Part shown: positions 28,660 to 58,380 of the stretch, piece by piece | How the letters are laid out: every line of letters begins with the position of its first letter | Numbering within the stretch: position 1 is the first letter of the stretch | The notes under the pieces: model-generated | The model's database searches: none | The model's input: the letters and a program-made list of their open reading frames with translations, nothing else | What the model was told of the DNA's origin: nothing | Virus record (IMG/VR): IMGVR_UViG_3300022305_000561 | Length of the DNA: 64,000 nt | DNA from: a virus | Taxonomy: Duplodnaviria > Caudoviricetes | Strand: one strand, 5' to 3' | Program-made: the position numbers and the translations under genes

Positions 28660-31500
28660 TTATGAAAATAGTTTCTTCAATCCTGAAGAGTGTTTACTTT
28701 GATCAACATATGTGTATGTTTGACCTACGTTACCTTCTGTAGAATATGATACGTGAACCCATCTGGAAGCACCATTATTCTTATATTCCATAATAAGTTT
28801 ATTGTATGGTAAAACTTTTTCCAACTTAGTGACCAAAGCAAATAGATTATCAACACTGTTATTGTCTATGAATTGAAAATCTATTGCTCTGCCTTTATTA
28901 TGATCTGAAGATGCTTTAGATGAGGCAACTGCCCCTTCAGTCCTAAATCCTGAAGTTAGCATCCAAGTGGCTCCATTACCACCACCCTGACAAGCGCCCA
29001 ATTCTTTATAGATGGGTTCTAATATATTCTCACACAATGCAGATAGGTTAGCCACAATCGTTTGTTTTGTGTATAACTTTCTATTACTAGATCCTGCTGA
29101 GGGTAAACTAACATCAGTGATGCTATATTTACCACCCAAGGTCAACATACCTAATGTGAAATGCTCAGACAATTTATAACTTAAGGGGAATCCAGATTGA
29201 TTATTAATTTCATTCAACTTATCTGCAGATATACCTTTACCAGAACCAGCTCCACCAGATACTGCAACTGAATCTTCATCTGTTGGATTCTTAATAGCAT
29301 TGTGTTCATATGCGCTTGTTGTATATAAACTATTAGCTGCCTTTTGTCCACTTGGTGAGTTCCAATCATCTTCCTCTTCATATTTAAACTCGCCAGAAGC
29401 TGACCTTTGAGGTGGTTTCAAGTTTGCGTAAGGTTGGTTATATGCAGATTCAACTGGCGGCACAACAAGTCTGTGTCTACTTGCACTGTTAGCTGCAGAT
29501 AATGAAGTTTTAGTTTCGATAGGAGCTCCAGCATATTTGACATCATATACATTTGGAGTTCCACCACCAAACAAGCTTGATAATCCTGAACTCAACGGTA
29601 ATCCGCTCAATATATCATCTATAGCAGTTTTAGGTAAAGTATTTGGATTATATGTTCCTGCTGGGTTCAATGCTGTCTCTACCAGAACCTGTTCTTTTGC
29701 TCTATCTTTAATTTCTTTACCAGCAAAGTCAACAGGTTTCTTAGCAGCCCCTAATAATGGTAATTCTGTTATATCTTTAATATCAATTTCTGTACCATTC
29801 AAGTCTATTTTAGCTGATTTCATTGATATTATATTTGTAGCATTCAATACTGCTGTTCCAACTGATTTTAATTCTAAATTACCAGTCAAAGTTTGAGCTT
29901 TGAATGTTCCAGTTTTTATTTCAGTTGATTCTGCTATATCAAGTTTGAATGTCTTAGCCTTGATTTGGAAGTCAGCAGGAGTTTCCAACTTAAAACTACT
30001 TGACATCTTCATAAGAGTTTCAGCAGTAGAAGCAGTATCACCACCTTCCATACTCATGGACTTAGAAGTCTTAAGTTTTAAAGCATCAGTAGATTCAATA
30101 GACATAGTACCAATTGATCTTGTGTTTGATGTCTTACCGACTTCAACGTTATAGTTACCTTCTACTAGAACATTGTAATCACCACCAACAGCAATATTAA
30201 GGTCTTTTGCAACTCCAATATTAGCATCATTATGGAATACAGCATCAACTTGACCTTTCACTTCAAGATTTGCATCACCTTGACATAGGATATTCATTGG
30301 ACCTGAAACTGTCAGGTTGCAAGTTCCATTGATGAATATGTTTCCATTACGTTCAGTAATGTAGAAGCCATCACCAACAATATAGTTGATTTGAGAACCA
30401 TTAGGATCTATTTCAATGAATGTACCTTTCTTATGATATAGATTAACACGTTCACCTTGAGGGCTATCATCAAATTCTAATACGTGACCTGATTCAGACT
30501 CAAATACTTTATTGTATGGATATACTGTATTGTATGCTGATTGAGGTTGATCGTATGTGCCAATAGTATTTGCTATTGGGATATCAGTCTTTCTAGTAGT
30601 ATCTTTATATTTTATGTTTGTGCCTTCAATAATACCCCGAGCAAGTCGGTTAGTATCAGGCTCATTCATATAATCCCTGAGGGGATATTTACCCTCAGGA
30701 TCAGTAAATCCATTTGTATTGAAGTTGGCTGTTCTATCTTCAGTATATGCCTCTTTCTTATTAGGAGATGACATATCAATTTCTTTTTGTGTCTTATTGA
30801 TGGCTGTACTAGTAGCATCTTTAGTGGTTGGTGGATTGGCAGCAACACCCCCCAAGAAATATTCATAATATCTAACTTTATGTCTGTATGAATCAGAACC
30901 TGCAGGGTCTCCAGGATTAACTGCAGTCAATGCTTTGAATATGAATCCAGGTTCATACTGAAGAGTCTTCCAACGAGGGATTCTCATCTTTATAAATTCA
31001 ACTGCAACGTTGGCACACAACTCCATAACAGTATCGTCTGTACCAACCATTACATCTGGATTGCTGGCTAAATCTTTTCCAACCAACTTACCTAATGCGA
31101 CATAATTGTCTTTGTGAGTAAGTTGTATAAATCCTCTACCGTAGTATTGACCAGCAGCAGGAGTAGCTCCATTTCGTGTTCCATAGAACCAACCAAAGAA
31201 TTCCTGCTTTGACATATCCTTGCCACCAGCATTACTTCCATATTTTTCAGCATCAGCCTCAGTCACTCTTGGTTTTGTCAAAAGTGTTGCTTTCTTGTAT
31301 CCGTGTTGTTCTTGAACAGGTAACCAAACACTCTCAACTCCAATGATACCTAAAATAGCACATTGAGCATATTTTGAATCTAGTCCTCTACTTTTGCAAG
31401 CCTTTTTTATAGCAGCAATACCACGCATTGCTCCTTGAGTTGCTTTAGCTTCTGATGGAGGTGTATCTGGAATTGGTATGCTTTCTATTGGATCAGCCAT
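28660..31500 (-). CDS. gp5: baseplate hub/spike gp5, C-terminal part: GH19-like lysozyme, beta-helix and peptidase M15
   Basis: YYGRGFIQLTHKDNY (GH19); YPYNKVFESESGHVLEFDD..ER and V.G repeats (gp5); LSEHFTL..SGFR..SDHNKGRAID..WVHVS (M15). Confidence 0.88.
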   Translation of the reverse strand: MADPIESIPIPDTPPSEAKATQGAMRGIAAIKKACKSRGLDSKYAQCAILGIIGVESVWLPVQEQHGYKKATLLTKPRVTEADAEKYGSNAGGKDMSKQEFFGWFYGTRNGATPAAGQYYGRGFIQLTHKDNYVALGKLVGKDLASNPDVMVGTDDTVMELCANVAVEFIKMRIPRWKTLQYEPGFIFKALTAVNPGDPAGSDSYRHKVRYYEYFLGGVAANPPTTKDATSTAINKTQKEIDMSSPNKKEAYTEDRTANFNTNGFTDPEGKYPLRDYMNEPDTNRLARGIIEGTNIKYKDTTRKTDIPIANTIGTYDQPQSAYNTVYPYNKVFESESGHVLEFDDSPQGERVNLYHKKGTFIEIDPNGSQINYIVGDGFYITERNGNIFINGTCNLTVSGPMNILCQGDANLEVKGQVDAVFHNDANIGVAKDLNIAVGGDYNVLVEGNYNVEVGKTSNTRSIGTMSIESTDALKLKTSKSMSMEGGDTASTAETLMKMSSSFKLETPADFQIKAKTFKLDIAESTEIKTGTFKAQTLTGNLELKSVGTAVLNATNIISMKSAKIDLNGTEIDIKDITELPLLGAAKKPVDFAGKEIKDRAKEQVLVETALNPAGTYNPNTLPKTAIDDILSGLPLSSGLSSLFGGGTPNVYDVKYAGAPIETKTSLSAANSASRHRLVVPPVESAYNQPYANLKPPQRSASGEFKYEEEDDWNSPSGQKAANSLYTTSAYEHNAIKNPTDEDSVAVSGGAGSGKGISADKLNEINNQSGFPLSYKLSEHFTLGMLTLGGKYSITDVSLPSAGSSNRKLYTKQTIVANLSALCENILEPIYKELGACQGGGNGATWMLTSGFRTEGAVASSKASSDHNKGRAIDFQFIDNNSVDNLFALVTKLEKVLPYNKLIMEYKNNGASRWVHVSYSTEGNVGQTYTYVDQSKHSSGLKKLFS

Positions 31501-41604: not shown

Positions 41605-41616
41605 GATTTATTTTTA

Positions 41617-41685
41617 TATAAATAGGTATAAGTCGCGATGTACCACCATCCACTTATTCTAAAACTATAACGGAGTATCAGCATG
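41617..41685 (+). ncRNA. conserved structured leader, copy 1 (late promoter, hairpin, RBS)
   Basis: TATAAATA-GGT-ATAAGT CGC GATG TACCAC CATC C ACTTAT-TCTAA...GGAG..ATG; covaries with the copies at 43853 and 55786. Confidence 0.7.
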
Positions 41686-42291
41686 ACTATTTATACAACA
41701 TTTATCCCAGACCAATATTGCGTCTATCACACCACCTATTCTGGATCGCTGATGCCAGCGAACTATATTGGCTCAACATCAGTAGACAATGTTCTCAATA
41801 AAAACTATCGTGGGTCTGTTGTTTCAAAAATCTATAAATCAATATGGAAATCTGAAATAAAACTGCATCCAGAACTATTCTCAACTGATATAGTATCATA
41901 TCACGACACTAGATCCGATGCGACTTGGAAAGAACTTCAGGTACAGAGAACTCTAAATGTTGTCAAGAGCGATTTGTTCGTAAATAGATCATATGCCACG
42001 GTAAATGGATTTCAAGATACAATATTTTCGCCAGAAGAACTCGCATCAAGAGGTAAGAACATATCAGATGCGCATGCCAATAGATCTCCAGAAGAAAAAG
42101 CAGCAACGAGTAAGAATCATTCTAATTCTTGGGATAACAAAACACCAGAAGAAAAAGCAGCATCCAGTAAGAAACATTCTGAGACTAAGGCTAAAAAGAA
42201 GGCAGAGTTAAATCTTCAACAAGCGAAGATTGCTCGAGAATTAGTTGTACTTTATCTTGAGGAAACTTTACAAATCTATCCAGTTTCTTAA
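41683..42291 (+). CDS. free-standing GIY-YIG-like (Seg-type) homing endonuclease
   Basis: YCVYHTTY..NYIGST..YRGS..E..Q..NVVKS..FVNRS catalytic domain; (S/T)PEEKAA.SK helical repeats; sits between gp59 and gp32. Confidence 0.75.
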   Translation: MTIYTTFIPDQYCVYHTTYSGSLMPANYIGSTSVDNVLNKNYRGSVVSKIYKSIWKSEIKLHPELFSTDIVSYHDTRSDATWKELQVQRTLNVVKSDLFVNRSYATVNGFQDTIFSPEELASRGKNISDAHANRSPEEKAATSKNHSNSWDNKTPEEKAASSKKHSETKAKKKAELNLQQAKIARELVVLYLEETLQIYPVS

Positions 42292-51063: not shown

Positions 51064-51137
51064 GCTTTATTTTAATTTATTTTCATATGGGTGTTTACAC
51101 TTACTAATTTTAATAAATACAATCATAGGAGATAAAA

Positions 51138-51419
51138 ATGAATGAATTTTTTAAGATTGTAGCGGACCTCGGATTCCCAATATCAGCAGCATTGGCCGCA
51201 GGTTATTTTGTATCCATAATGTTGAAGTTTATTTTAGCAGGAGTAACAAGTTCTGTTAAGGGAATGGCTGGTATCATTACTGCATTAGACAATAGGGTTA
51301 AGACTATGAATGCTGATATCATACGGATTGATACTCTAGTAAGTTCAGCTCTTGGTTTGAGACCCGATCTTGATAGAATAGGTAGAGCAAATGGAAAAGA
51401 AGATTGTAGGAGGGATTAG
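51138..51419 (+). CDS. single-TM holin-like (YvrJ-like) membrane protein A
   Basis: IVADLGFPISAALAAGYFV TM segment followed by a coiled coil. Confidence 0.6.
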   Translation: MNEFFKIVADLGFPISAALAAGYFVSIMLKFILAGVTSSVKGMAGIITALDNRVKTMNADIIRIDTLVSSALGLRPDLDRIGRANGKEDCRRD

Positions 51420-51739
51420 TGGATAATATTGCAGAGTTAGTATCAAAATATGGATTTCCTATCATTGCTGCGGGTGGTATGGGATATCTGGTGTATTCGG
51501 TTTGGGTGTGGGCAACCGTAGAGATAAAACCAGTAATATCAGAAACCAGTACTGTATTGATAGCACTCATAGACAGAATACGGATGCTTGATCAGGATAA
51601 CATTAGGCTTCAACAAAAGGTAACAACAGTATTACATCTTCGTGGTAAAACAATTGAAAGGGAAAGAGTTCATGCCGAACTACTAATAAACAAGGAACAC
51701 CATGAAAATAATGATACTAATAGCTCTGTCCCTGATTAG
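51419..51739 (+). CDS. single-TM holin-like membrane protein B (paralogue of A)
   Basis: LVSKYGFPIIAAGGMGYLV..LIALIDRIRMLDQDNIRL aligns with A (ITALDNRVKTMNADIIRI). Confidence 0.6.
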   Translation: MDNIAELVSKYGFPIIAAGGMGYLVYSVWVWATVEIKPVISETSTVLIALIDRIRMLDQDNIRLQQKVTTVLHLRGKTIERERVHAELLINKEHHENNDTNSSVPD

Positions 51740-52229
51740 CAGCAATATATTTGCATCGGAAATAAACCAACAATTCAAAGATCCAGCTTTTAGTGGTATT
51801 GGTTGGTCGTCACATATGTTTACTGTATATCAAACCACTCAAGCAGCAAAACAATCCATAGTAAATACACAAGCATCAAATGTAGCAATTGCTTCTTCAG
51901 CAGCATCCAATACTCCTGCAGCAAAATTTATGAACTTGTTCCAATCACAAATATACTCACAGTTAGCAACCCAACTAAGCAATAGTTTGTTCTCTACTTG
52001 CACCACAGCGGCTGGAGCAGCAATTTCTGGATGTACACCAAATCAATATAATGGTCATATGGTTATTGATGTCAGCACAGGCACTTCATTAGATTGGCAG
52101 AAATTGGATGCATCGGGTAATACCGTGTCAGCTACAAATGGATTAACTGCCACTCAAGTTCAACTCAACATCAACGGAACTAGGACAAATACATCTGTTA
52201 CTGTACCCATAGCATCGTTTGCATTCTGA
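51702..52229 (+). CDS. csgF: curli assembly component CsgF-like
   Basis: Signal peptide, then QFKDPAFSG.G...H; F...FQSQIYSQLA.QL; immediately upstream of csgG. Confidence 0.78.
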   Translation: MKIMILIALSLISSNIFASEINQQFKDPAFSGIGWSSHMFTVYQTTQAAKQSIVNTQASNVAIASSAASNTPAAKFMNLFQSQIYSQLATQLSNSLFSTCTTAAGAAISGCTPNQYNGHMVIDVSTGTSLDWQKLDASGNTVSATNGLTATQVQLNINGTRTNTSVTVPIASFAF

Positions 52230-53017
52230 TGAAAATATTATTACTAACATTAGTGTTATTAGCTGGTTGTTCTGCTATCCGCCCATTAGAACAGGTTGGC
52301 ACTAGAACAGAATCTAGAATAACAAAATCCTCGGCAGAACAGTTTGATAAAGTCCCTCATTTAGATGGATCTCCCTTAGCAGTAGCAGTATATTCATTTA
52401 CAGATAAAACGGGTCAAAGGAAACCATCAACAACATTGTCACTATTCTCGACTGCAGTATCTCAAGGAGTAGATGCTTATGTTATTAAAGCTTTAAAAGA
52501 TATTGATAATGGTCAATGGTTTAGAGTAGTTGAACGAGGTGGTATTGATAATCTTATTAAAGAGCGTCAAATTATAAAGCAAACACGAGATCTTTATGGT
52601 GATAAGACAGAATTGTCCCCTCTAGTTTATGCGGGATTGATACTTGAGGGTGGAATAATTGGCTATGATAGTAATACAAGAACAGGCGGTTCTGGTGTAG
52701 TTGCTTTTGGTATTGGACCTTATACCCAATATAGTCAGGATCAAGTAATTATCAACATGAGATTAGTATCTGTACAAAATGGAGAAGTCATTGCATCCGT
52801 TACTGTAGAAAAGAATATCTTATCTACTGGTGATGGCATAACAGGAATGACATTTTACAATTTAGGCACAAGATCATTTGAAGTAGACATCAGTCAAACA
52901 TATAACGAACCAGGACAATATGCTGTTAGGAATGCGGTTGAGACTGGTATTATAGAATTGTTATATGAAGGAGAAAGAAAACATCTTTGGAAATTCAAAC
53001 AGGAAGTTAAAAAATGA
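52229..53017 (+). CDS. csgG: curli secretion channel CsgG-like lipoprotein
   Basis: Lipobox LAGC; VAVYSFTDKTGQRKP, STAVSQG, WFRVVERGGIDNLIKERQII, EGGIIGYDSN..TGG, MRLVSV..GEV. Confidence 0.93.
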   Translation: MKILLLTLVLLAGCSAIRPLEQVGTRTESRITKSSAEQFDKVPHLDGSPLAVAVYSFTDKTGQRKPSTTLSLFSTAVSQGVDAYVIKALKDIDNGQWFRVVERGGIDNLIKERQIIKQTRDLYGDKTELSPLVYAGLILEGGIIGYDSNTRTGGSGVVAFGIGPYTQYSQDQVIINMRLVSVQNGEVIASVTVEKNILSTGDGITGMTFYNLGTRSFEVDISQTYNEPGQYAVRNAVETGIIELLYEGERKHLWKFKQEVKK

Positions 53018-53787
53018 AATATTTTGCAGCATTAATAATATTTTGGTTAATGGTTTTATTCACTTTTGATAGTCAATCAGCAGACCCAACCCCAGTATTA
53101 CCACCAAATCCAGTAATACCAACAATGCCGACAAATACCCCTAATGTGACAGCAGCAGCATTAGAATCTACAACAAATAAGGTATTCATTGATCAGGCTG
53201 GCGCTACCCCGAATATCAATATCACTCAAACAGGCACTGCGAATAAATTAGGCTCGTCTGAGTTGTTACCTTTTATATTCCGTGGCAATTTACATACGTT
53301 TGTTAGTATTCAAACTGGACTCAGCAATACCCTTACTGGCAGCATCTATGGTGATACTGTAGGTATAACAACCACAATACAACAAATCGGCAATAGTAAT
53401 CTTGTAAATTTCAATTGTGGTAAAGGTACAGATGCTAGTTGTGGTGGTTCAACATTTAATTGGCATTTCTCTGGCAACTCCAACACATTATATTACAATG
53501 GTGGTGGTGCTAATCAAAACTCCGCTATCAATTCTGATGGTAACAATAACTCATTTAATTTCTTAATACAAGCACCTAATGCTGCACAAAACATACAATT
53601 AGTTGGCAGCACAAACACATTTAACTTAACTCAAACTGGTGGCGGTGCTGCAGGAAATTCGTTTGCTGTTAATTTGATAGGTTCAGGCAATACATTTAAC
53701 GCATCACAAACAGGCGCTATTGATAATGTCATATCAATAAAATCCTCAGGAAGCAATGGGACTTATAATATAACACAAAAACCCTAA
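53014..53787 (+). CDS. curlin-repeat (CsgA/CsgB-like) secreted protein
   Basis: Signal peptide, Pro-rich leader, about 15 N-x-x-x-I-x-Q-x-G type strands (NKVFIDQAG, NINITQTG, NTFNLTQTG, NTFNASQTG). Confidence 0.75.
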   Translation: MKYFAALIIFWLMVLFTFDSQSADPTPVLPPNPVIPTMPTNTPNVTAAALESTTNKVFIDQAGATPNINITQTGTANKLGSSELLPFIFRGNLHTFVSIQTGLSNTLTGSIYGDTVGITTTIQQIGNSNLVNFNCGKGTDASCGGSTFNWHFSGNSNTLYYNGGGANQNSAINSDGNNNSFNFLIQAPNAAQNIQLVGSTNTFNLTQTGGGAAGNSFAVNLIGSGNTFNASQTGAIDNVISIKSSGSNGTYNITQKP

Positions 53788-54872
53788 TGAAATTCTTGAT
53801 TCTATTCTTTATGTGTGCTAATGCCTTTGCTGGTATTGGTACCATTACTGAACAAGAGGGTCAAGTTAATATCAAAAGAGGTAATGGAAATCTAGTTGGT
53901 ACAAAAGGCACATCACTTGAAATGCTCGATACCATTATAACAAACAAGAACAAGTCTGGCATAACATTTAACGATGATACAACGGTAAATGTTACCGAAA
54001 ACAGTAAACTTGAAATTGACGATTTTGTATATGATCCAAACTCAAAAGGCACTGGTAAGTTAGCATTAAAAGTTGCATTGGGTACTGTTAGGTATGCTTC
54101 TGGTAAGGTTGCTCACGAGAACCCCAACAGCGTGAAGATTAATACACCAACAGCCACTATTGCTGTGCGTGGTACAGATTTTGTAATGGCAGTGGATGAA
54201 ATAGGGCGATCTATTATTGTATTGATGCCTCAGTGTGATGATATCGAAAATGAGGCTTGCAAGACTGGGTCAATAGAAATTATAACACCAGCAGGTTCGG
54301 TGGTTATGAATAAACCCTATCAAGCAACTCTAGTAGAATCTAGAGGTGATGCACCACCAATGCCAACTATTATCAAGTTTGATTCGAGCAAGGTTGGTAA
54401 TAATATGATGGTAACTGTCCCAAAAACTGAGGGTGGTGTATCATTGATTAACAAATCAAGGGATGCAGTAAAAGCTTCACAGAAGTCAAAACAAGATAAG
54501 AGTTCTGATAAGAACAGTACCCATACAACTGGTGTTATTGGAGTTACCTCAGAACAAGAGGCACAAATATCACAAGATATAGGTGGTATAGGTTCTATTA
54601 AACAAACAACAGAAAAGCTTATCCCATCAGTACAGAAGTCTGACGCTGAGTTGATGGGCGAGAGTTCTCGTGTTACTCCAGTGTATACAAAAGTAGTTCA
54701 AACTGGATGGCAATATTATAATCATACGGAAACAGATAGACAACAAGCAACTATAGTAATGGAAAAATCAACACTTGTTCAGATAGTTGTAATACAAGAT
54801 ATGATACAAGATACATTCCAATTTGCTAATAAGCCACAGGGGTTTATTACAATACGTCAAAACCAGAAATGA
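53787..54872 (+). CDS. secreted FecR-domain protein
   Basis: Signal peptide; D.I.T...I.F.D.T...TENSKLEIDDFVYDP, G.VRYASG, TPTATIAVRGTDF. Confidence 0.85.
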   Translation: MKFLILFFMCANAFAGIGTITEQEGQVNIKRGNGNLVGTKGTSLEMLDTIITNKNKSGITFNDDTTVNVTENSKLEIDDFVYDPNSKGTGKLALKVALGTVRYASGKVAHENPNSVKINTPTATIAVRGTDFVMAVDEIGRSIIVLMPQCDDIENEACKTGSIEIITPAGSVVMNKPYQATLVESRGDAPPMPTIIKFDSSKVGNNMMVTVPKTEGGVSLINKSRDAVKASQKSKQDKSSDKNSTHTTGVIGVTSEQEAQISQDIGGIGSIKQTTEKLIPSVQKSDAELMGESSRVTPVYTKVVQTGWQYYNHTETDRQQATIVMEKSTLVQIVVIQDMIQDTFQFANKPQGFITIRQNQK

Positions 54873-54882
54873 GGATATTAAG

Positions 54883-55173
54883 ATGGCAGTAACAAAAACA
54901 ACAGTTGTAGAGAAAGATATGGAAAAGGAAGATTTTATGACATCAAAATGGCGACCAATGATGGCTATATCATATATGGCCATTTGTCTATTTGATTTTA
55001 TGGTTGGTCCAATTCTTTATAATATACTCCAGTATATGAATCCTGGTCAACACTTAGATATGTGGCAAGCAGTTACATTACAGGGTGGTGGCTTGTATCA
55101 TTTATCAATGGGTGCCATCATTGGTATTACTGCTTTTGGTAGAACTAAAGAGAAGTTAGCAGAACAAGCATAA
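54883..55173 (+). CDS. holin (3TM/GTA-type-like)
   Basis: KWRPMMAISYMAICLFDF..P..W..VTLQGGGLYHLSMGAIIGITAFGRTKEK; ATG behind GAGG. Confidence 0.65.
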   Translation: MAVTKTTVVEKDMEKEDFMTSKWRPMMAISYMAICLFDFMVGPILYNILQYMNPGQHLDMWQAVTLQGGGLYHLSMGAIIGITAFGRTKEKLAEQA

Positions 55174-55210
55174 ATGTATTAAATACGAAACATTATTCAA
55201 TTAAAACCGT

Positions 55211-55393
55211 TTAATGTTTCGTACACCAAGGTTTATCATTTCCTACCCAATCTTGAATATGTACACTCCAACACATCAATTTATTATAAGTTGGGTATAA
55301 CCACTCACAATCAAGATAATCCATTAGGTAACTAACCCAGTCTCCAAGTATATATAATACCTCGCTCAAAATTCTTGCAAATATTTTTTTCAT
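55211..55393 (-). CDS. small hypothetical protein
   Basis: LYILGDWVS..LYPTYNKLM.WS..IQD..PW pattern. Confidence 0.55.
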   Translation of the reverse strand: MKKIFARILSEVLYILGDWVSYLMDYLDCEWLYPTYNKLMCWSVHIQDWVGNDKPWCTKH

Positions 55394-55399
55394 AATATC

Positions 55400-55711
55400 C
55401 TACTTGCTTGTTGCCACAAATGTTCCATTCCAGTCTCTGGGCAGTTTCTTACTAAGTTCATAATCAGCAATTCGTTGTATCATCATATCATAATAGTAAT
55501 CTAACTCACCATCAAACGAACCTTTCAATGCTTCACATTCTAACGCAGCAGTTGTCCATTCTTGTCGGTTGTAATGCCATAACATCTTATCGTGTATATT
55601 ATCTCGCATCTCTTTAGCCAGAACCAAATTCTTAGGTTCTAATACTGTATAGATGTCTACACCTTCAGTTTTTCCTTTTACGGAAATCGTATCTAACTTT
55701 ATTTCAAACAT
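55400..55711 (-). CDS. C-terminal fragment of the adenylate cyclase (KGK hairpin and TPR-like tail)
   Basis: LDTISVKGKTEGVDIYTV, Y..QEW..A, LP.DWNGTF.ATSK; same frame as ORF 55850-57601; own GAGG RBS. Confidence 0.85.
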   Translation of the reverse strand: MFEIKLDTISVKGKTEGVDIYTVLEPKNLVLAKEMRDNIHDKMLWHYNRQEWTTAALECEALKGSFDGELDYYYDMMIQRIADYELSKKLPRDWNGTFVATSK

Positions 55712-55854
55712 TGATTACCTCTTAGGTGTTGACCAAAGGCATTTATTGATATACCCTACGACAACATATACAATAAATAAATAGTCAAGCTGATACTCCG
55801 TTATAGTTTTAGAATAGGTGGGATGTAGGAATCCGCGACCTATAACTATTTATA
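55712..55854 (-). mobile_element. ORF-less endonuclease-leader cassette (copy 3) interrupting the cyclase gene
   Basis: TATAAATA-GTT-ATAGGT CGC GGAT TCCTAC ATCC C ACCTAT-TCTAAAACTATAACGGAGTATCAGC-TTG ACTATTTAT, nearly identical to 41617-41694. Confidence 0.8.
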
Positions 55855-57601
55855 TAAATTCAGATCTCAACTTATCTATTGTATTTTTACTTAATATTAA
55901 TGATACACCATAATTTTTTGTTTGTCCCTCAAGTCTAGCAGCAAGATTAACTTCATCGCCTAGTATATCATAACTGAACCTATCTTTAGACCCCATATTA
56001 CCAACAAATACCGTTCCTGTACTGAGACCTGCTCCAACTTGTAAAGGTGGTTTACCTTCAGCAACCAATTCAATATTCAATTCTGCTAATGCAACTTCCA
56101 TTTCTTTTGCTGCCTTTAATGATTTAGTTGCCTGATTATCTACATCCAATGGGGCACCCCACCAAGCCATTATTGCATCGCCTATCAGCTTACCCACAGT
56201 ACCATCATTATTCATTATTATTGGAAGCATCCTATCCATATATCTTGTAATAAGATTCGTCAATCCTTGAGGGTCAGTTTTATAATGTTCTGAAATAGTT
56301 GTAAATGACCTGATATCTGAAAAGTATATCGTCAGTTCTTTAGAATCTCCACCTAACTTCAACAGTTCTGGATTCTTCTGTAACTTTTCTACATAGTCAG
56401 GACTTAAGTATGTTCCAAACTGTTTCTTTATCTGGAGTTTTGCTTTAAGTTCTGTTAGGAATAAGGTGGCATATGTGTGTCCAAATACCGTTCCCACAGC
56501 GAGAATAGGTATTGTGATATCAAGAAGATAGTGGAAAGTATTAAATATACTGCTAGAGATAGGATAAAAAGAAAGTAAAATGCCACCGATAATAAAGATT
56601 CCATACTTGACCCTTGCTATTAAGATTGATAAAATGCTAAGTATGACCATAGCAAGTATTTCTGCACCAGTACTCCAATCAGGTCTTGATATATTAGTAC
56701 CTGTTGTTAATGTATTTAGAACGGATGCTTGAAGATGATGTGGAAAGACAGAGCCGTTAGCAGTGGCGACTGGGTTGTTGAGTCCTCTTGCAGATAATCC
56801 AACAATGACGATACTGGAGTTAAAGGACTCTGGAAGGTGGCTTGCTGAATATTCTGTAAATGTTGCTGGCTTAACCCATATCCTACCGATACTGTCTGTT
56901 TGAATCTTTCCGAACTTTGGGATTCTGACGGCTTCAATAGAATCATCATTGACTTTGACTTGAAAGGAAGGGTCTCCTGAAGCGACCCGCAATGTTTCAA
57001 GACTGATACTGGGGTACAATAGTCCGTTGGAATTGACCACCATTGGGATTCTTCGGGTAACGCCATCAATTTCTGGGAGTGTATTAACAACACCAACACC
57101 AGCAGCAGTATCATTAAACTCTTGTATGTTTGGCTGAATGTTACCATATTTCACTCCGATAGATTTAGCATCACCACCAATAACGGATACGCCTGGACGA
57201 AATGCTGCATACTTATCTGAAAAATATGAATCGTCTATTGCTGTTTGTGGTAGAACTACTGGATATTCTTTTAATGTGTTAGTAAAATTATTGTCGTATC
57301 CTGCTCTATCCACATCTAGAAGAAAAATATTAAAAACAACCAAGCCAGCGTTGAGATCATAAAGGTTTTTAATAAGAGCTGAATATTCGTTGCGAGGAAA
57401 AGGAAATTGACCTTTTTGAGAAATTGTTTCATCATCTATGTTCACCAATACTATGTCTGAATGTTGTATATCTTGTGTAAGAAGAGTATCAAAATATCTT
57501 AATCTGATACTCTCTACAAAAGTTGGGTCTAATACCCTTATCCCTACAATAAGTGATAATGTAATTAATGCACACCAGCGGGATAAGAGTATTTTTTTCA
57601 T
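55850..57601 (-). CDS. CHASE2-domain class III adenylate cyclase, N-terminal part
   Basis: TM, IVLVNIDD..GQFPFPR, DGVTRRIP (CHASE2), three TMs, FSDIRSFT, KLIGDAIMA.WGAP, GNMGS..YDILGDEVNLAARLE. Confidence 0.93.
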   Translation of the reverse strand: MKKILLSRWCALITLSLIVGIRVLDPTFVESIRLRYFDTLLTQDIQHSDIVLVNIDDETISQKGQFPFPRNEYSALIKNLYDLNAGLVVFNIFLLDVDRAGYDNNFTNTLKEYPVVLPQTAIDDSYFSDKYAAFRPGVSVIGGDAKSIGVKYGNIQPNIQEFNDTAAGVGVVNTLPEIDGVTRRIPMVVNSNGLLYPSISLETLRVASGDPSFQVKVNDDSIEAVRIPKFGKIQTDSIGRIWVKPATFTEYSASHLPESFNSSIVIVGLSARGLNNPVATANGSVFPHHLQASVLNTLTTGTNISRPDWSTGAEILAMVILSILSILIARVKYGIFIIGGILLSFYPISSSIFNTFHYLLDITIPILAVGTVFGHTYATLFLTELKAKLQIKKQFGTYLSPDYVEKLQKNPELLKLGGDSKELTIYFSDIRSFTTISEHYKTDPQGLTNLITRYMDRMLPIIMNNDGTVGKLIGDAIMAWWGAPLDVDNQATKSLKAAKEMEVALAELNIELVAEGKPPLQVGAGLSTGTVFVGNMGSKDRFSYDILGDEVNLAARLEGQTKNYGVSLILSKNTIDKLRSEFI

Positions 57602-57603
57602 AT

Positions 57604-58380
57604 TTAGAACAAGTCCGAAAAGAAGTTTCCAATTGAATCTAGCCAGTCATCGTCTTTCTCAACCGCCTGTTCATCTGGAATTGCTACTTCTTCAACAACA
57701 ATAGCAGCAATAGCAGCAGCTACGACTGGTGCAACAACAACAACAACTGGTACAGGTTTGGAGAATACATCTTCATCAATAAGACCTAAAGCAATATCAT
57801 AATGATGTTGTCTATCTTTCAAACCAACAGTACCACCATTGATTTTCTTTGTTAATGTAGTAAAGTCACTTGAATCGGCATATTGATTCAGTTTAGTATT
57901 CTTCCAGAAGAATGCACCAGATACTACAGCACCTTCCAAGGTTTCACAGAATGCAACAGTTTCATCTAATGATTTACCAATTGCTTTTGCTAATGCTTGA
58001 TAGTTACATTTACCCGTGGTTTGAATACAACCACGACCACGGAATTTGAACCCATCACCAGATGCTTCAGAACCATTACCCATTCTATCACAGTAGACTT
58101 TATTTGCAATCTTTTCTGGGTTTCTGTTATATGGTGCAGCCATCGCAGCAGAGGTGAACCTTTTTGGCCACACTGAGCAAAGACCAGCAGCAGAATAGTT
58201 CAAGTTCTCTTTCAATGCAGTAAACTGAGCAGACTCGTGGCTAGTTTGAGCTAAGAATGCTGCAACCCTTTTACGAGTGTTGATTTCATATTCTGGTAAT
58301 ACTTTGTTTAGAACTTCAAGTAACACTTCAGGTTGTTTGTTGTTTGGACAAATCTTCTTCAGTTGTTCAAGGGTTAGCAT
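57604..58380 (-). CDS. GH19 (chitinase-like) endolysin
   Basis: AAFLAQTSHES, ENLNYS, IANKVY..RMGNG..GDGFKFRGRG.IQTTGK.NY, TKKINGG. Confidence 0.92.
   Translation of the reverse strand: MLTLEQLKKICPNNKQPEVLLEVLNKVLPEYEINTRKRVAAFLAQTSHESAQFTALKENLNYSAAGLCSVWPKRFTSAAMAAPYNRNPEKIANKVYCDRMGNGSEASGDGFKFRGRGCIQTTGKCNYQALAKAIGKSLDETVAFCETLEGAVVSGAFFWKNTKLNQYADSSDFTTLTKKINGGTVGLKDRQHHYDIALGLIDEDVFSKPVPVVVVVAPVVAAAIAAIVVEEVAIPDEQAVEKDDDWLDSIGNFFSDLF

Follow-up and report, generated by a model that had tools for sequence, protein, structure and literature searches.

Do curli secretion genes, a FecR-domain gene and a CHASE2 adenylate cyclase gene that lie among the lysis genes of a phage constitute a signalling system for the control of lysis, or a secretion module that borders on those genes? 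This question is raised by positions 51138-58380 of a 64,000-nt stretch of viral DNA (IMGVR_UViG_3300022305_000561), referred to hereafter as the window. The window is part of a contig of ~140 kb, and its portal, sheath, TerL, baseplate and gp32 genes identify the phage as a T4-like myophage, for which a search of phage records revealed no near-identical entries. A preliminary description of the locus had proposed a trans-envelope sensor that tunes lysis. We found that the locus represents the viral type VIII secretion system (T8SS) module of pelagiphage-type phages, here carried by an uncultured T4-like myophage, and that it has undergone a lineage-specific rearrangement: the cyclase gene is inverted and lies 2 nt behind a GH19 endolysin gene, a holin gene occupies a variable slot, and the cyclase gene is split by a decayed homing-endonuclease gene (HEG) cassette. 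As a whole, and with moderate confidence, we read the locus as a rearranged viral T8SS module that probably combines the export of curlin fibres with a two-piece CHASE2 cyclase that makes cyclic AMP (cAMP), the lysis genes being mere neighbours.

On the plus strand, genes for two small membrane proteins (sm1 and sm2), CsgF, CsgG, a curlin-like subunit, a secreted FecR-domain protein and a holin converge on a minus-strand unit consisting of the GH19 endolysin and CHASE2 adenylate cyclase genes. The plus-strand genes overlap by 1 nt (sm1/sm2), 38 nt (sm2/csgF) and then 1, 4 and 1 nt, and a 10-nt gap separates fecR from the holin ATG at 54883. CsgF, CsgG, FecR, GTA_holin_3TM, CHASE2 together with Guanylate_cyc, and GH19 were all recognized above Pfam's own cut-offs, and PHROGs was concordant for the holin and the endolysin. 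CsgG could be aligned over its full length with Escherichia coli CsgG (3x2r; E 1.6e-42), with its lipobox LLAGC falling on LLSGC, so that the LAGC lipobox given in the preliminary description is confirmed, as are its assignments of CsgF and the FecR-domain protein to the operon. The constriction of the channel retains the Phe residue, with Y51 and N55 of the E. coli protein being replaced. A comparison of CsgF with PDB sequences gave no direct match. The csgF, csgG and curlin-repeat genes are adjacent and in the same orientation in the window, and csgE, csgC and csgD were not found among the Pfam matches of the locus, in agreement with both the preliminary description and the published module (PMC9599517).

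The protein encoded downstream of csgG is curlin-like by virtue of its homologues and of a predicted beta-solenoid fold. Its Melnitz and HTVC008M homologues match Curlin_rpt, and an AlphaFold2 (AF2) model with a pLDDT of 85 shows the strand-turn-strand rungs as a stack. The gene contains no tandem repeats at the DNA level.

To determine whether these genes belong together, we relied on their distribution among other viruses. A CsgG profile search yielded at least 561 viral contigs, from which 80 loci were kept and analysed together with those obtained earlier (individual loci are denoted by L numbers). FecR was present in all 51 viral loci that extend 7 kb or more downstream of csgG and the cyclase in 48 of these, and the sm pair was present in 34 of the 38 viral loci with both flanks. 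The parts stay together across layouts in which the sm genes are upstream or convergent behind the cyclase and the cyclase is co-oriented or inverted, and one or two curlin-repeat genes lie beside csgG in nearly all loci. The association of csgFG with FecR and cyclase genes, on which the preliminary description had made its interpretation conditional, thus persists among relatives through several rearrangements. Genuine Erythrobacter, Sphingopyxis, Qipengyuania and Hyphomonas chromosomes carry csgF-csgG only, with FecR, cyclase and sm genes absent alongside, and a candidate bacterial source locus with the whole module was rejected because the full set occurs only on phage-like contigs of metagenome-assembled genomes. 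The module is therefore a phage-specific composite. Phage-encoded curli are abundant in the ocean, with ~0.1% of assembled viral proteins according to the literature, in addition to the contigs retrieved here.

The sm1 and sm2 proteins are paralogues (28% identity, E 3e-7), each with one transmembrane (TM) segment and a coiled coil, and their family is characterized by a GFPI motif, the single membrane segment and a very conserved coiled-coil segment. More than 2271 homologues of sm1 were found, all viral or metagenomic; no Pfam family covers sm1, and the nearest named cluster, YvrJ at 0.89, is a lead only. Among 50,697 phage records, sm1, CsgG, FecR and the cyclase were confined to the same 6, and we therefore regard sm1 and sm2 as parts of the module. 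The preliminary description had called them two paralogous holin-like TM proteins. The paralogy and the membrane segment are borne out, but the likeness to holins is not: it comes down to one weak N-terminal match (E 0.004) in PHROGs, without Pfam or PDB support, and the phyletic pattern is that of csgG. The sm1 protein is equivalent to the 'HK' protein of Wittmers et al. 2022, and the proteins that HTVC008M and Melnitz encode at that position are homologues of both sm1 and sm2. A kinase domain was not detected in either, and we rejected their assignment as histidine kinases, for which we obtained coiled-coil noise and weak YvrJ or TM140 matches only.

The module has precedents in marine SAR11 phages. 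The csgFG operons in pelagimyophages were reported by Zaragoza-Solas et al. (PMC7029224), as the preliminary description had pointed out, and the complete set of genes, with those for FecR, the 'HK' proteins, a second curlin and an adenylate cyclase among them, was found in podo- and myophages by Wittmers et al., who also noted metatranscriptome expression and an alphaproteobacterial affinity (PMC9599517). Given that the full module has been described in the latter study, the core of our finding, a module with FecR and a cyclase, is already published. The locus shares with the pelagiphage T8SS the same parts (one or two 'HK' proteins, CsgF, CsgG, the curlin-repeat protein, FecR and the CHASE2 cyclase) and the same order from csgF to fecR, and its proteins are 27-54% identical to those of HTVC008M and Melnitz. 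It differs in the inversion of the cyclase behind GH19, in the presence of a holin in place of the second (PA14-)curlin and in the splitting of the cyclase by an endonuclease. With the curli of E. coli and alphaproteobacteria it shares a full-length CsgG, the CsgF family and a secreted Q/N/G-rich repeat subunit modelled as a beta-solenoid, whereas it lacks a recognized CsgE, CsgC or CsgD, and bacteria lack the FecR, cyclase and sm genes beside csgFG.

The envelope-exposed block from csgF to fecR has been exchanged as a unit, which amounts to mosaic inheritance. Whereas sm1 and sm2 are 97% and 92% identical to those of the closest relative, L004, the identities for CsgF, CsgG, curlin and FecR (window 51702-54872) are only 34%, 45%, 32% and 50%, respectively. 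The nearest relatives of CsgG (53-59%) are found in other contigs (L010-L038). The features of the locus are listed in Table 1.

Table 1. Features recognized in and around the module, with window positions, strand and basis of assignment.
Feature	Positions	Strand	Basis
Candidate sigma-70-like promoter TTTACA-18-TACAAT ahead of sm1	51094..51123	+	consensus scan, 10/12 positions
sm1, 93-aa single-pass membrane protein, coiled coil, conserved RADGKxDARRD-type tail	51138..51419	+	phrog_18771, E 2.5e-32
sm2, 106-aa sm1 paralogue, GFPI-TM-LIALIDRIRMLD motif	51419..51739	+	phrog_18771, E 3.8e-27; family alignment
CsgF-like secreted protein	51702..52229	+	Pfam PF10614, E 3.1e-7, 31 bits vs cut-off 25.8
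CsgG outer-membrane lipoprotein channel	52229..53017	+	Pfam PF03783, E 3.9e-48
Secreted curlin-like repeat subunit, 257 aa, ~8 predicted strand-turn-strand rungs	53014..53787	+	homology to Melnitz/HTVC008M curlin-repeat proteins (E 1e-13); AF2 model
Secreted FecR-domain protein	53787..54872	+	Pfam PF04773, E 1.4e-9
GTA-type holin, 96 aa from ATG	54883..55173	+	Pfam PF11351, E 8.7e-8, 33.1 bits vs cut-off 24.8; phrog_3427 E 3.7e-8
60-aa Cys/Trp-rich open reading frame directly after cyclase	55211..55393	-	open reading frame list; matches no family
cycC, C-terminal cyclase piece, 103 aa, last beta strands, VKGK Lys and ~80-aa helical tail	55400..55711	-	aligns with intact cyclase C-termini
Homing-endonuclease cassette remnant, 138 nt: leader hairpin, ribosome-binding site, 10-codon HEG stub, Shine-Dalgarno AAGAGG	55712..55849	-	HEG leader identity
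TATAAATA T4-type late-promoter motif overlapping cycN stop codon	55847..55854	-	motif count
cycN, 583 aa: TM, CHASE2, three TM segments, most of class III adenylate cyclase domain	55850..57601	-	Pfam CHASE2 E 5e-35, Guanylate_cyc E 1e-17
GH19 endolysin with C-terminal hydrophobic and acidic tail	57604..58380	-	phrog_181 E 1e-69; PDB 9eoi E 3.4e-44 over residues 2-197

Does the cyclase work? The preliminary description had credited it with both metal Asp residues, the Lys/Asp pair that specifies ATP and the Asn and Arg residues. Alignment to Cya2, CyaB and CyaC (2w01, 3r5g and 1wc1, respectively) revealed all of these in cycN (both metal Asp, specificity Lys, Asp at N-7, Asn and Arg), but the division of the enzyme into two genes, cycN and cycC, had been missed. 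The CHASE2 domain of cycN (PF05226, residues 14-326) is periplasmic between TM segments, and the protein stops at SEFI* (55850) within the catalytic domain, after covering positions 7-155 of the 183 in the Pfam profile. The cycC product starts with MFEIKLDTISVKGK, carries the phosphate-binding beta7-beta8 Lys and can be aligned to the C-terminal end of the cyclases of Melnitz, L003, L004 and L009, in all of which the gene is uninterrupted. Among 54 phage cyclases, the D, K, D and R residues were invariant and the second specificity residue was D, T or S, all adenylate-cyclase-like. The catalytic Asn is replaced by Ser in 25 of the 54; the window has the K/D/N set. Cyclases with both the Asn-to-Ser change and an Asp-to-Thr/Ser change at the specificity position, such as those of L004 and Melnitz, form a subtype of their own, possibly with a different activity or product.

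The spacer between the two cyclase genes begins with ~85 nt that are ~85% identical to the leader and first codons of the L006 endonuclease gene; for the same ~85 nt, the identity to the leader of the HEG present in the window itself (41613-41694) is 92-96%, which is why we regard the spacer as a decayed endonuclease cassette. The AAGAGG Shine-Dalgarno (SD) sequence lies seven bases before the ATG of cycC, and the late-promoter motif is present in 24 copies in the window, compared with 10.6 expected, mostly ahead of structural genes. The window's own HEG is an intact GIY-YIG-type gene (41613-42291, plus strand, 202 aa) and shares this leader cassette, which comprises TATAAATA, a hairpin, TCTAA and a ribosome-binding site. 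We rejected the presence of a group I intron, or of another known RNA, in the gap on the basis of the absence of any Rfam match at E up to 1, a fold z-score of -1.1 and the match of the 138-nt spacer to the HEG leader. Gene-60-type bypass over the 147-nt in-frame gap, for which ATA take-off and landing codons exist, was judged unlikely because the gap is a copy of the HEG leader with its own SD and ATG. The arrangement resembles the 'genes in pieces' of T4-like phages, in that a free-standing endonuclease cassette sits in a conserved coding region and both halves are open reading frames (ORFs) with new stop and start signals; it differs in that the endonuclease ORF is reduced to a 10-codon stub and in that the split gene encodes a signalling enzyme rather than an enzyme of nucleotide metabolism.

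The cyclase is interrupted at the same site in L005/L008 and L006 by a 303-aa or 268-aa ORF with a GIY-YIG-like start, that of L005 also containing NUMOD3, and in L007 a different endonuclease gene cuts the cyclase at the membrane segments. Indeed, GIY-YIG/NUMOD3 genes riddle the modules of relatives (L005 4290-5144, 7351-8199 and 11825-12736; L007 3018-3722; L003 8092-8883; L004 435-674), which separate sm1 from sm2 and curlin from fecR, interrupt the cyclase at two different positions or lie beside GH19.

It is unlikely, in our estimation, that the cyclase of the window phage is a decaying pseudogene killed by the endonuclease insertion, so that only the secretion half of the module works. 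The break does fall inside the catalytic domain and leaves the Lys that binds phosphate on a different piece from the residues that bind metal and base, and 3 of the 51 viral loci lack a cyclase. Both pieces are nevertheless intact ORFs, cycC has its own SD, ATG and late-promoter motif, and at least three lineages (the window, L005/L008 and L006) have retained a split copy. The dN/dS ratio for cycC was 0.16-0.34 in comparisons with intact relatives and 0.17 between two HEG-split copies, indicative of purifying selection. Phage genes split by an endonuclease can keep their function, as does nrdA of phage Aeh1, which is divided by mobE. By analogy, we infer that a two-piece cyclase split between helix alpha5 and strand beta7 would keep its activity, and the split by a selfish endonuclease provides a two-piece enzyme for complementation assays.

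To gain insight into the role of the FecR-domain protein, we obtained an AF2 model (pLDDT 84), which consists of a beta domain (residues 18-196), a helix, a disordered stretch (246-287) and a confident six-strand C-terminal domain (296-358). The beta domain resembles the PupR cell-surface signalling domain (CCSSD), with Z scores of 15.2 for 6ovk_R and 14.2 for 4m0n, and both a cytoplasmic anti-sigma domain and an N-terminal TM helix are absent from the protein, in which the signal peptide is followed directly by the beta domain. Residues 14-109 also superposed on the MpIBP/LapA retention module 5ix9 (Z 6.7, rmsd 2.2 Å, 73 residues, 26% identity), a type of module that anchors adhesins in an outer-membrane pore via a flexible segment (bioRxiv 10.1101/198937). 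A long flexible segment follows in the FecR-domain protein, as in LapA, whereas the secretion system and polarity differ and the Z score is modest; given that the same region lies in the FecR/PupR-like domain, the likeness may only reflect a shared beta-sandwich. The C-terminal domain was matched to the last curlin repeats at the profile level (hhalign P 2e-4, probability 46%), and a terminal Phi-x-Phi-x-Q motif was present in 53 of 57 FecR proteins, 41 of 57 curlin proteins and 2 of 64 control ORFs. A curlin HMM found nothing significant among the FecR ORFs (best E 0.72), and the curlin-like C-terminus is therefore no more than a lead.

Co-variation was assessed for both FecR domains in 24 complete loci. 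Both co-vary with CsgF, CsgG and curlin (rho 0.55-0.71, Mantel p 0.0005), and their co-variation with CHASE2 is slight (rho 0.10-0.15). CHASE2 and the catalytic domain of the same enzyme are likewise decoupled (rho 0.19), which would be expected if the 3' part of the cyclase gene were shuffled through endonuclease homing. These co-variation figures, which are confounded by physical linkage and recombination, favour the notion that the FecR-domain protein is a component of the secretion block rather than of a sensor; it travels with the secretion genes, and its architecture suggests anchoring through the pore. In a tentative extension of this notion, which we consider possible and yet rather doubtful, the protein would tether the curli fibre or channel to the periplasm. 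The curlin-like C-terminal domain would be threaded through CsgG and would either be incorporated into the fibre or nucleate it, the CsgG pore would be spanned by the disordered linker of ~40 residues, and the N-terminal domain, with its likeness to the LapA/MpIBP retention module and FecR, would be held in the periplasm as a plug. This last domain could then inform the envelope, and possibly the CHASE2 cyclase, of the occupancy of the channel or the load of the fibre. If such a model were true, type VIII secretion would have its own counterpart of LapA-type retention, and a concrete mechanism would be at hand for trans-envelope sensing by a phage.

The proximity of the lysis genes also depends on the lineage. 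The GH19 gene ends 2 nt before the cyclase start, as the preliminary description had stated (57604 versus 57601), and the Pfam and PHROGs matches uphold the holin at the end of its plus-strand operon; a longer holin ORF would start with TTG at 54823 and overlap fecR. We examined flanks of up to 10 kb per side, or less at contig ends. GH19 touches the module only in this clade: it is located ahead of the cyclase in the window, L003, L004 and L007 and ahead of the sm genes in L005/L008. In L124, which also belongs to the clade, it is ~1.8 kb upstream of the cyclase, with four ORFs in between, and in the other loci it is 0.8-8.5 kb away or outside the fetched flanks. The position between fecR and the cyclase is occupied by a PA14-curlin gene in most loci, the holin gene in the layout of the window, a gene for a secreted non-specific nuclease in L005 and one for a RimK ligase in L006. 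No homologue of PA14-curlin was found anywhere in the window, where the holin takes the slot of the second curlin gene. This position thus behaves as a cargo slot, which weakens the argument from lysis-gene adjacency, with two independent GH19 layouts keeping that argument alive.

The second curlin gene is located at 7639-8964 in L001, 7794-8810 in L002 and 7974-9089 in L006. In HTVC008M and L006 it encodes a carbohydrate-binding PA14 domain fused to curlin repeats, with the Melnitz copy containing Curlin_rpt only, and the fusion points to a fibre with an adhesive domain at its tip or side. Genes for secreted DNA/RNA non-specific endonucleases lie inside or beside the module at 9291-10004 in L005 and at 16333-17091 in L124. 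The GH19 endolysin has a second PDB match (9ms6, E 4.6e-43). Its C-terminal ~60 residues (57604-57780) comprise a conserved hydrophobic run, VVVVVAPVVAAAIAAIVV, and then an acidic segment; such a tail is present in none of the matched solved GH19 endolysins and may be a membrane anchor or regulatory tail. A gp5-like baseplate hub protein (28660-31500, minus strand) also contains a GH19-like domain (phrog_181), along with another lysin-like domain at the C-terminus, so that the free GH19 endolysin has a virion-borne paralogue.

Might the CsgG pore, a FecR relay and the CHASE2 cyclase then constitute one trans-envelope sensor, with cAMP tuning the timing of holin and endolysin action in a manner analogous, in function only, to T4 lysis inhibition? 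Precedents exist. The CHASE2 cyclases CyaD1, CyaD2 and CyaK of Sinorhizobium meliloti sense an external protein via the outer-membrane protein NsrA (PMC13001267), FecR and CHASE2 genes are found as neighbours in bacteria (PMC5192318, PMC5498481), as the preliminary description had maintained, and lysis regulation was proposed for phage CsgGF by Buchholz et al. (PMC9004378). The 2-nt and 10-nt distances that separate the endolysin from the cyclase and the holin from fecR, together with the two positions of GH19 beside the module, point in the same direction. The S. meliloti system shares with the phage locus both the CHASE2-TM-class III cyclase architecture and a nearby periplasmic FecR-domain gene, but the rhizobial locus is without a secretion system and encodes the regulator Clr beside cyaD1, whereas no cyclic nucleotide (cNMP)-binding gene was found in related phages. 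Furthermore, the FecR-domain protein SMc02177 encoded beside cyaD1 is a target of the pathway rather than a sensor and is unnecessary for signal perception (PMC5498481). The modules of HTVC008M and Melnitz, unlike that of the window, contain no lysis gene, the holin slot carries unrelated cargo elsewhere, and FecR barely co-varies with CHASE2. We therefore consider a single sensor of this kind unlikely. The co-occurrence of its proposed parts and the CHASE2 precedent speak for the interpretation given in the preliminary description; the link to lysis is one of neighbourhood, given that adjacency is confined to a clade and that the holin sits in a variable slot, and control of lysis timing is accordingly unproven. 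The joining of the module to a conventional holin and endolysin in one clade nonetheless makes it a natural test case for the lysis hypothesis.

That CsgG, with or without CsgF, is itself a lysis-related envelope pore of the pinholin or secretin type, with the curlin-like proteins as accessories, as proposed for Melnitz (PMC9004378), is in our view quite improbable: the CsgE gate is missing from the Pfam matches of the locus, the E. coli constriction residues Y51 and N55 are replaced and a holin and endolysin adjoin in this clade, but CsgG resides in the outer membrane, where there is no proton motive force to collapse, curlin-repeat genes conserved beside csgG in nearly all loci argue for a substrate, and the phage possesses a conventional holin and endolysin of its own.

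Several observations weigh against our reading of the locus as a secretion module with a cAMP-making cyclase and incidental lysis genes. The protein that we call curlin-like has no match to Pfam Curlin_rpt in the window's own sequence, so that the term curlin-repeat protein in the preliminary description holds through homologues and model only. Moreover, the match of its model to CsgA (8c50, Z 13.3) stands amid many generic beta-solenoids, and Foldseek returned no specific match. No clumping was seen during Melnitz infection (PMC9004378). With regard to the cyclase, activity is required of an enzyme split between helix alpha5 and strand beta7, the dN/dS values for split versus unsplit copies include the time before the split, and no gene for a cNMP-binding protein (PF00027) that might serve as cAMP receptor was found in HTVC008M, Melnitz or two large related contigs. 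The confounding of the co-variation figures belongs here as well, as does the immediate adjacency of GH19 to the module in two layouts within the clade, for which function rather than chance is possible.

According to the secretion-module reading, an infected cell, the own genome of which lacks curli (as reported for the hosts of cultured relatives; PMC7029224, PMC9004378), would build a CsgG/CsgF channel in its outer membrane, and this channel would export the curlin-like subunit to form surface fibres, with the FecR-domain protein being functionally part of the secretion block. The CHASE2 cyclase, for which a role in signalling is plausible, would respond to a cue from the periplasm or envelope by converting ATP into cAMP, to be bound by a receptor of the host. 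The cycN and cycC products would reassemble into an active enzyme, like those of other endonuclease-split phage genes, with the spacer remnant supplying the late-promoter motif, SD and start codon for cycC, and the lysis genes would be neighbours in a hypervariable region. Our findings leave the classification of the module unchanged and turn vague hypotheses into specific experiments.

Two minor features remain. Sigma-70-like matches are no more frequent in the window than in shuffled sequences, and that upstream of sm1 is a candidate promoter only. The small Trp/Cys-rich ORF that follows the cyclase has a homologue at the same position after the cyclase in L124 (13095-13280) and is thus conserved in two lineages.

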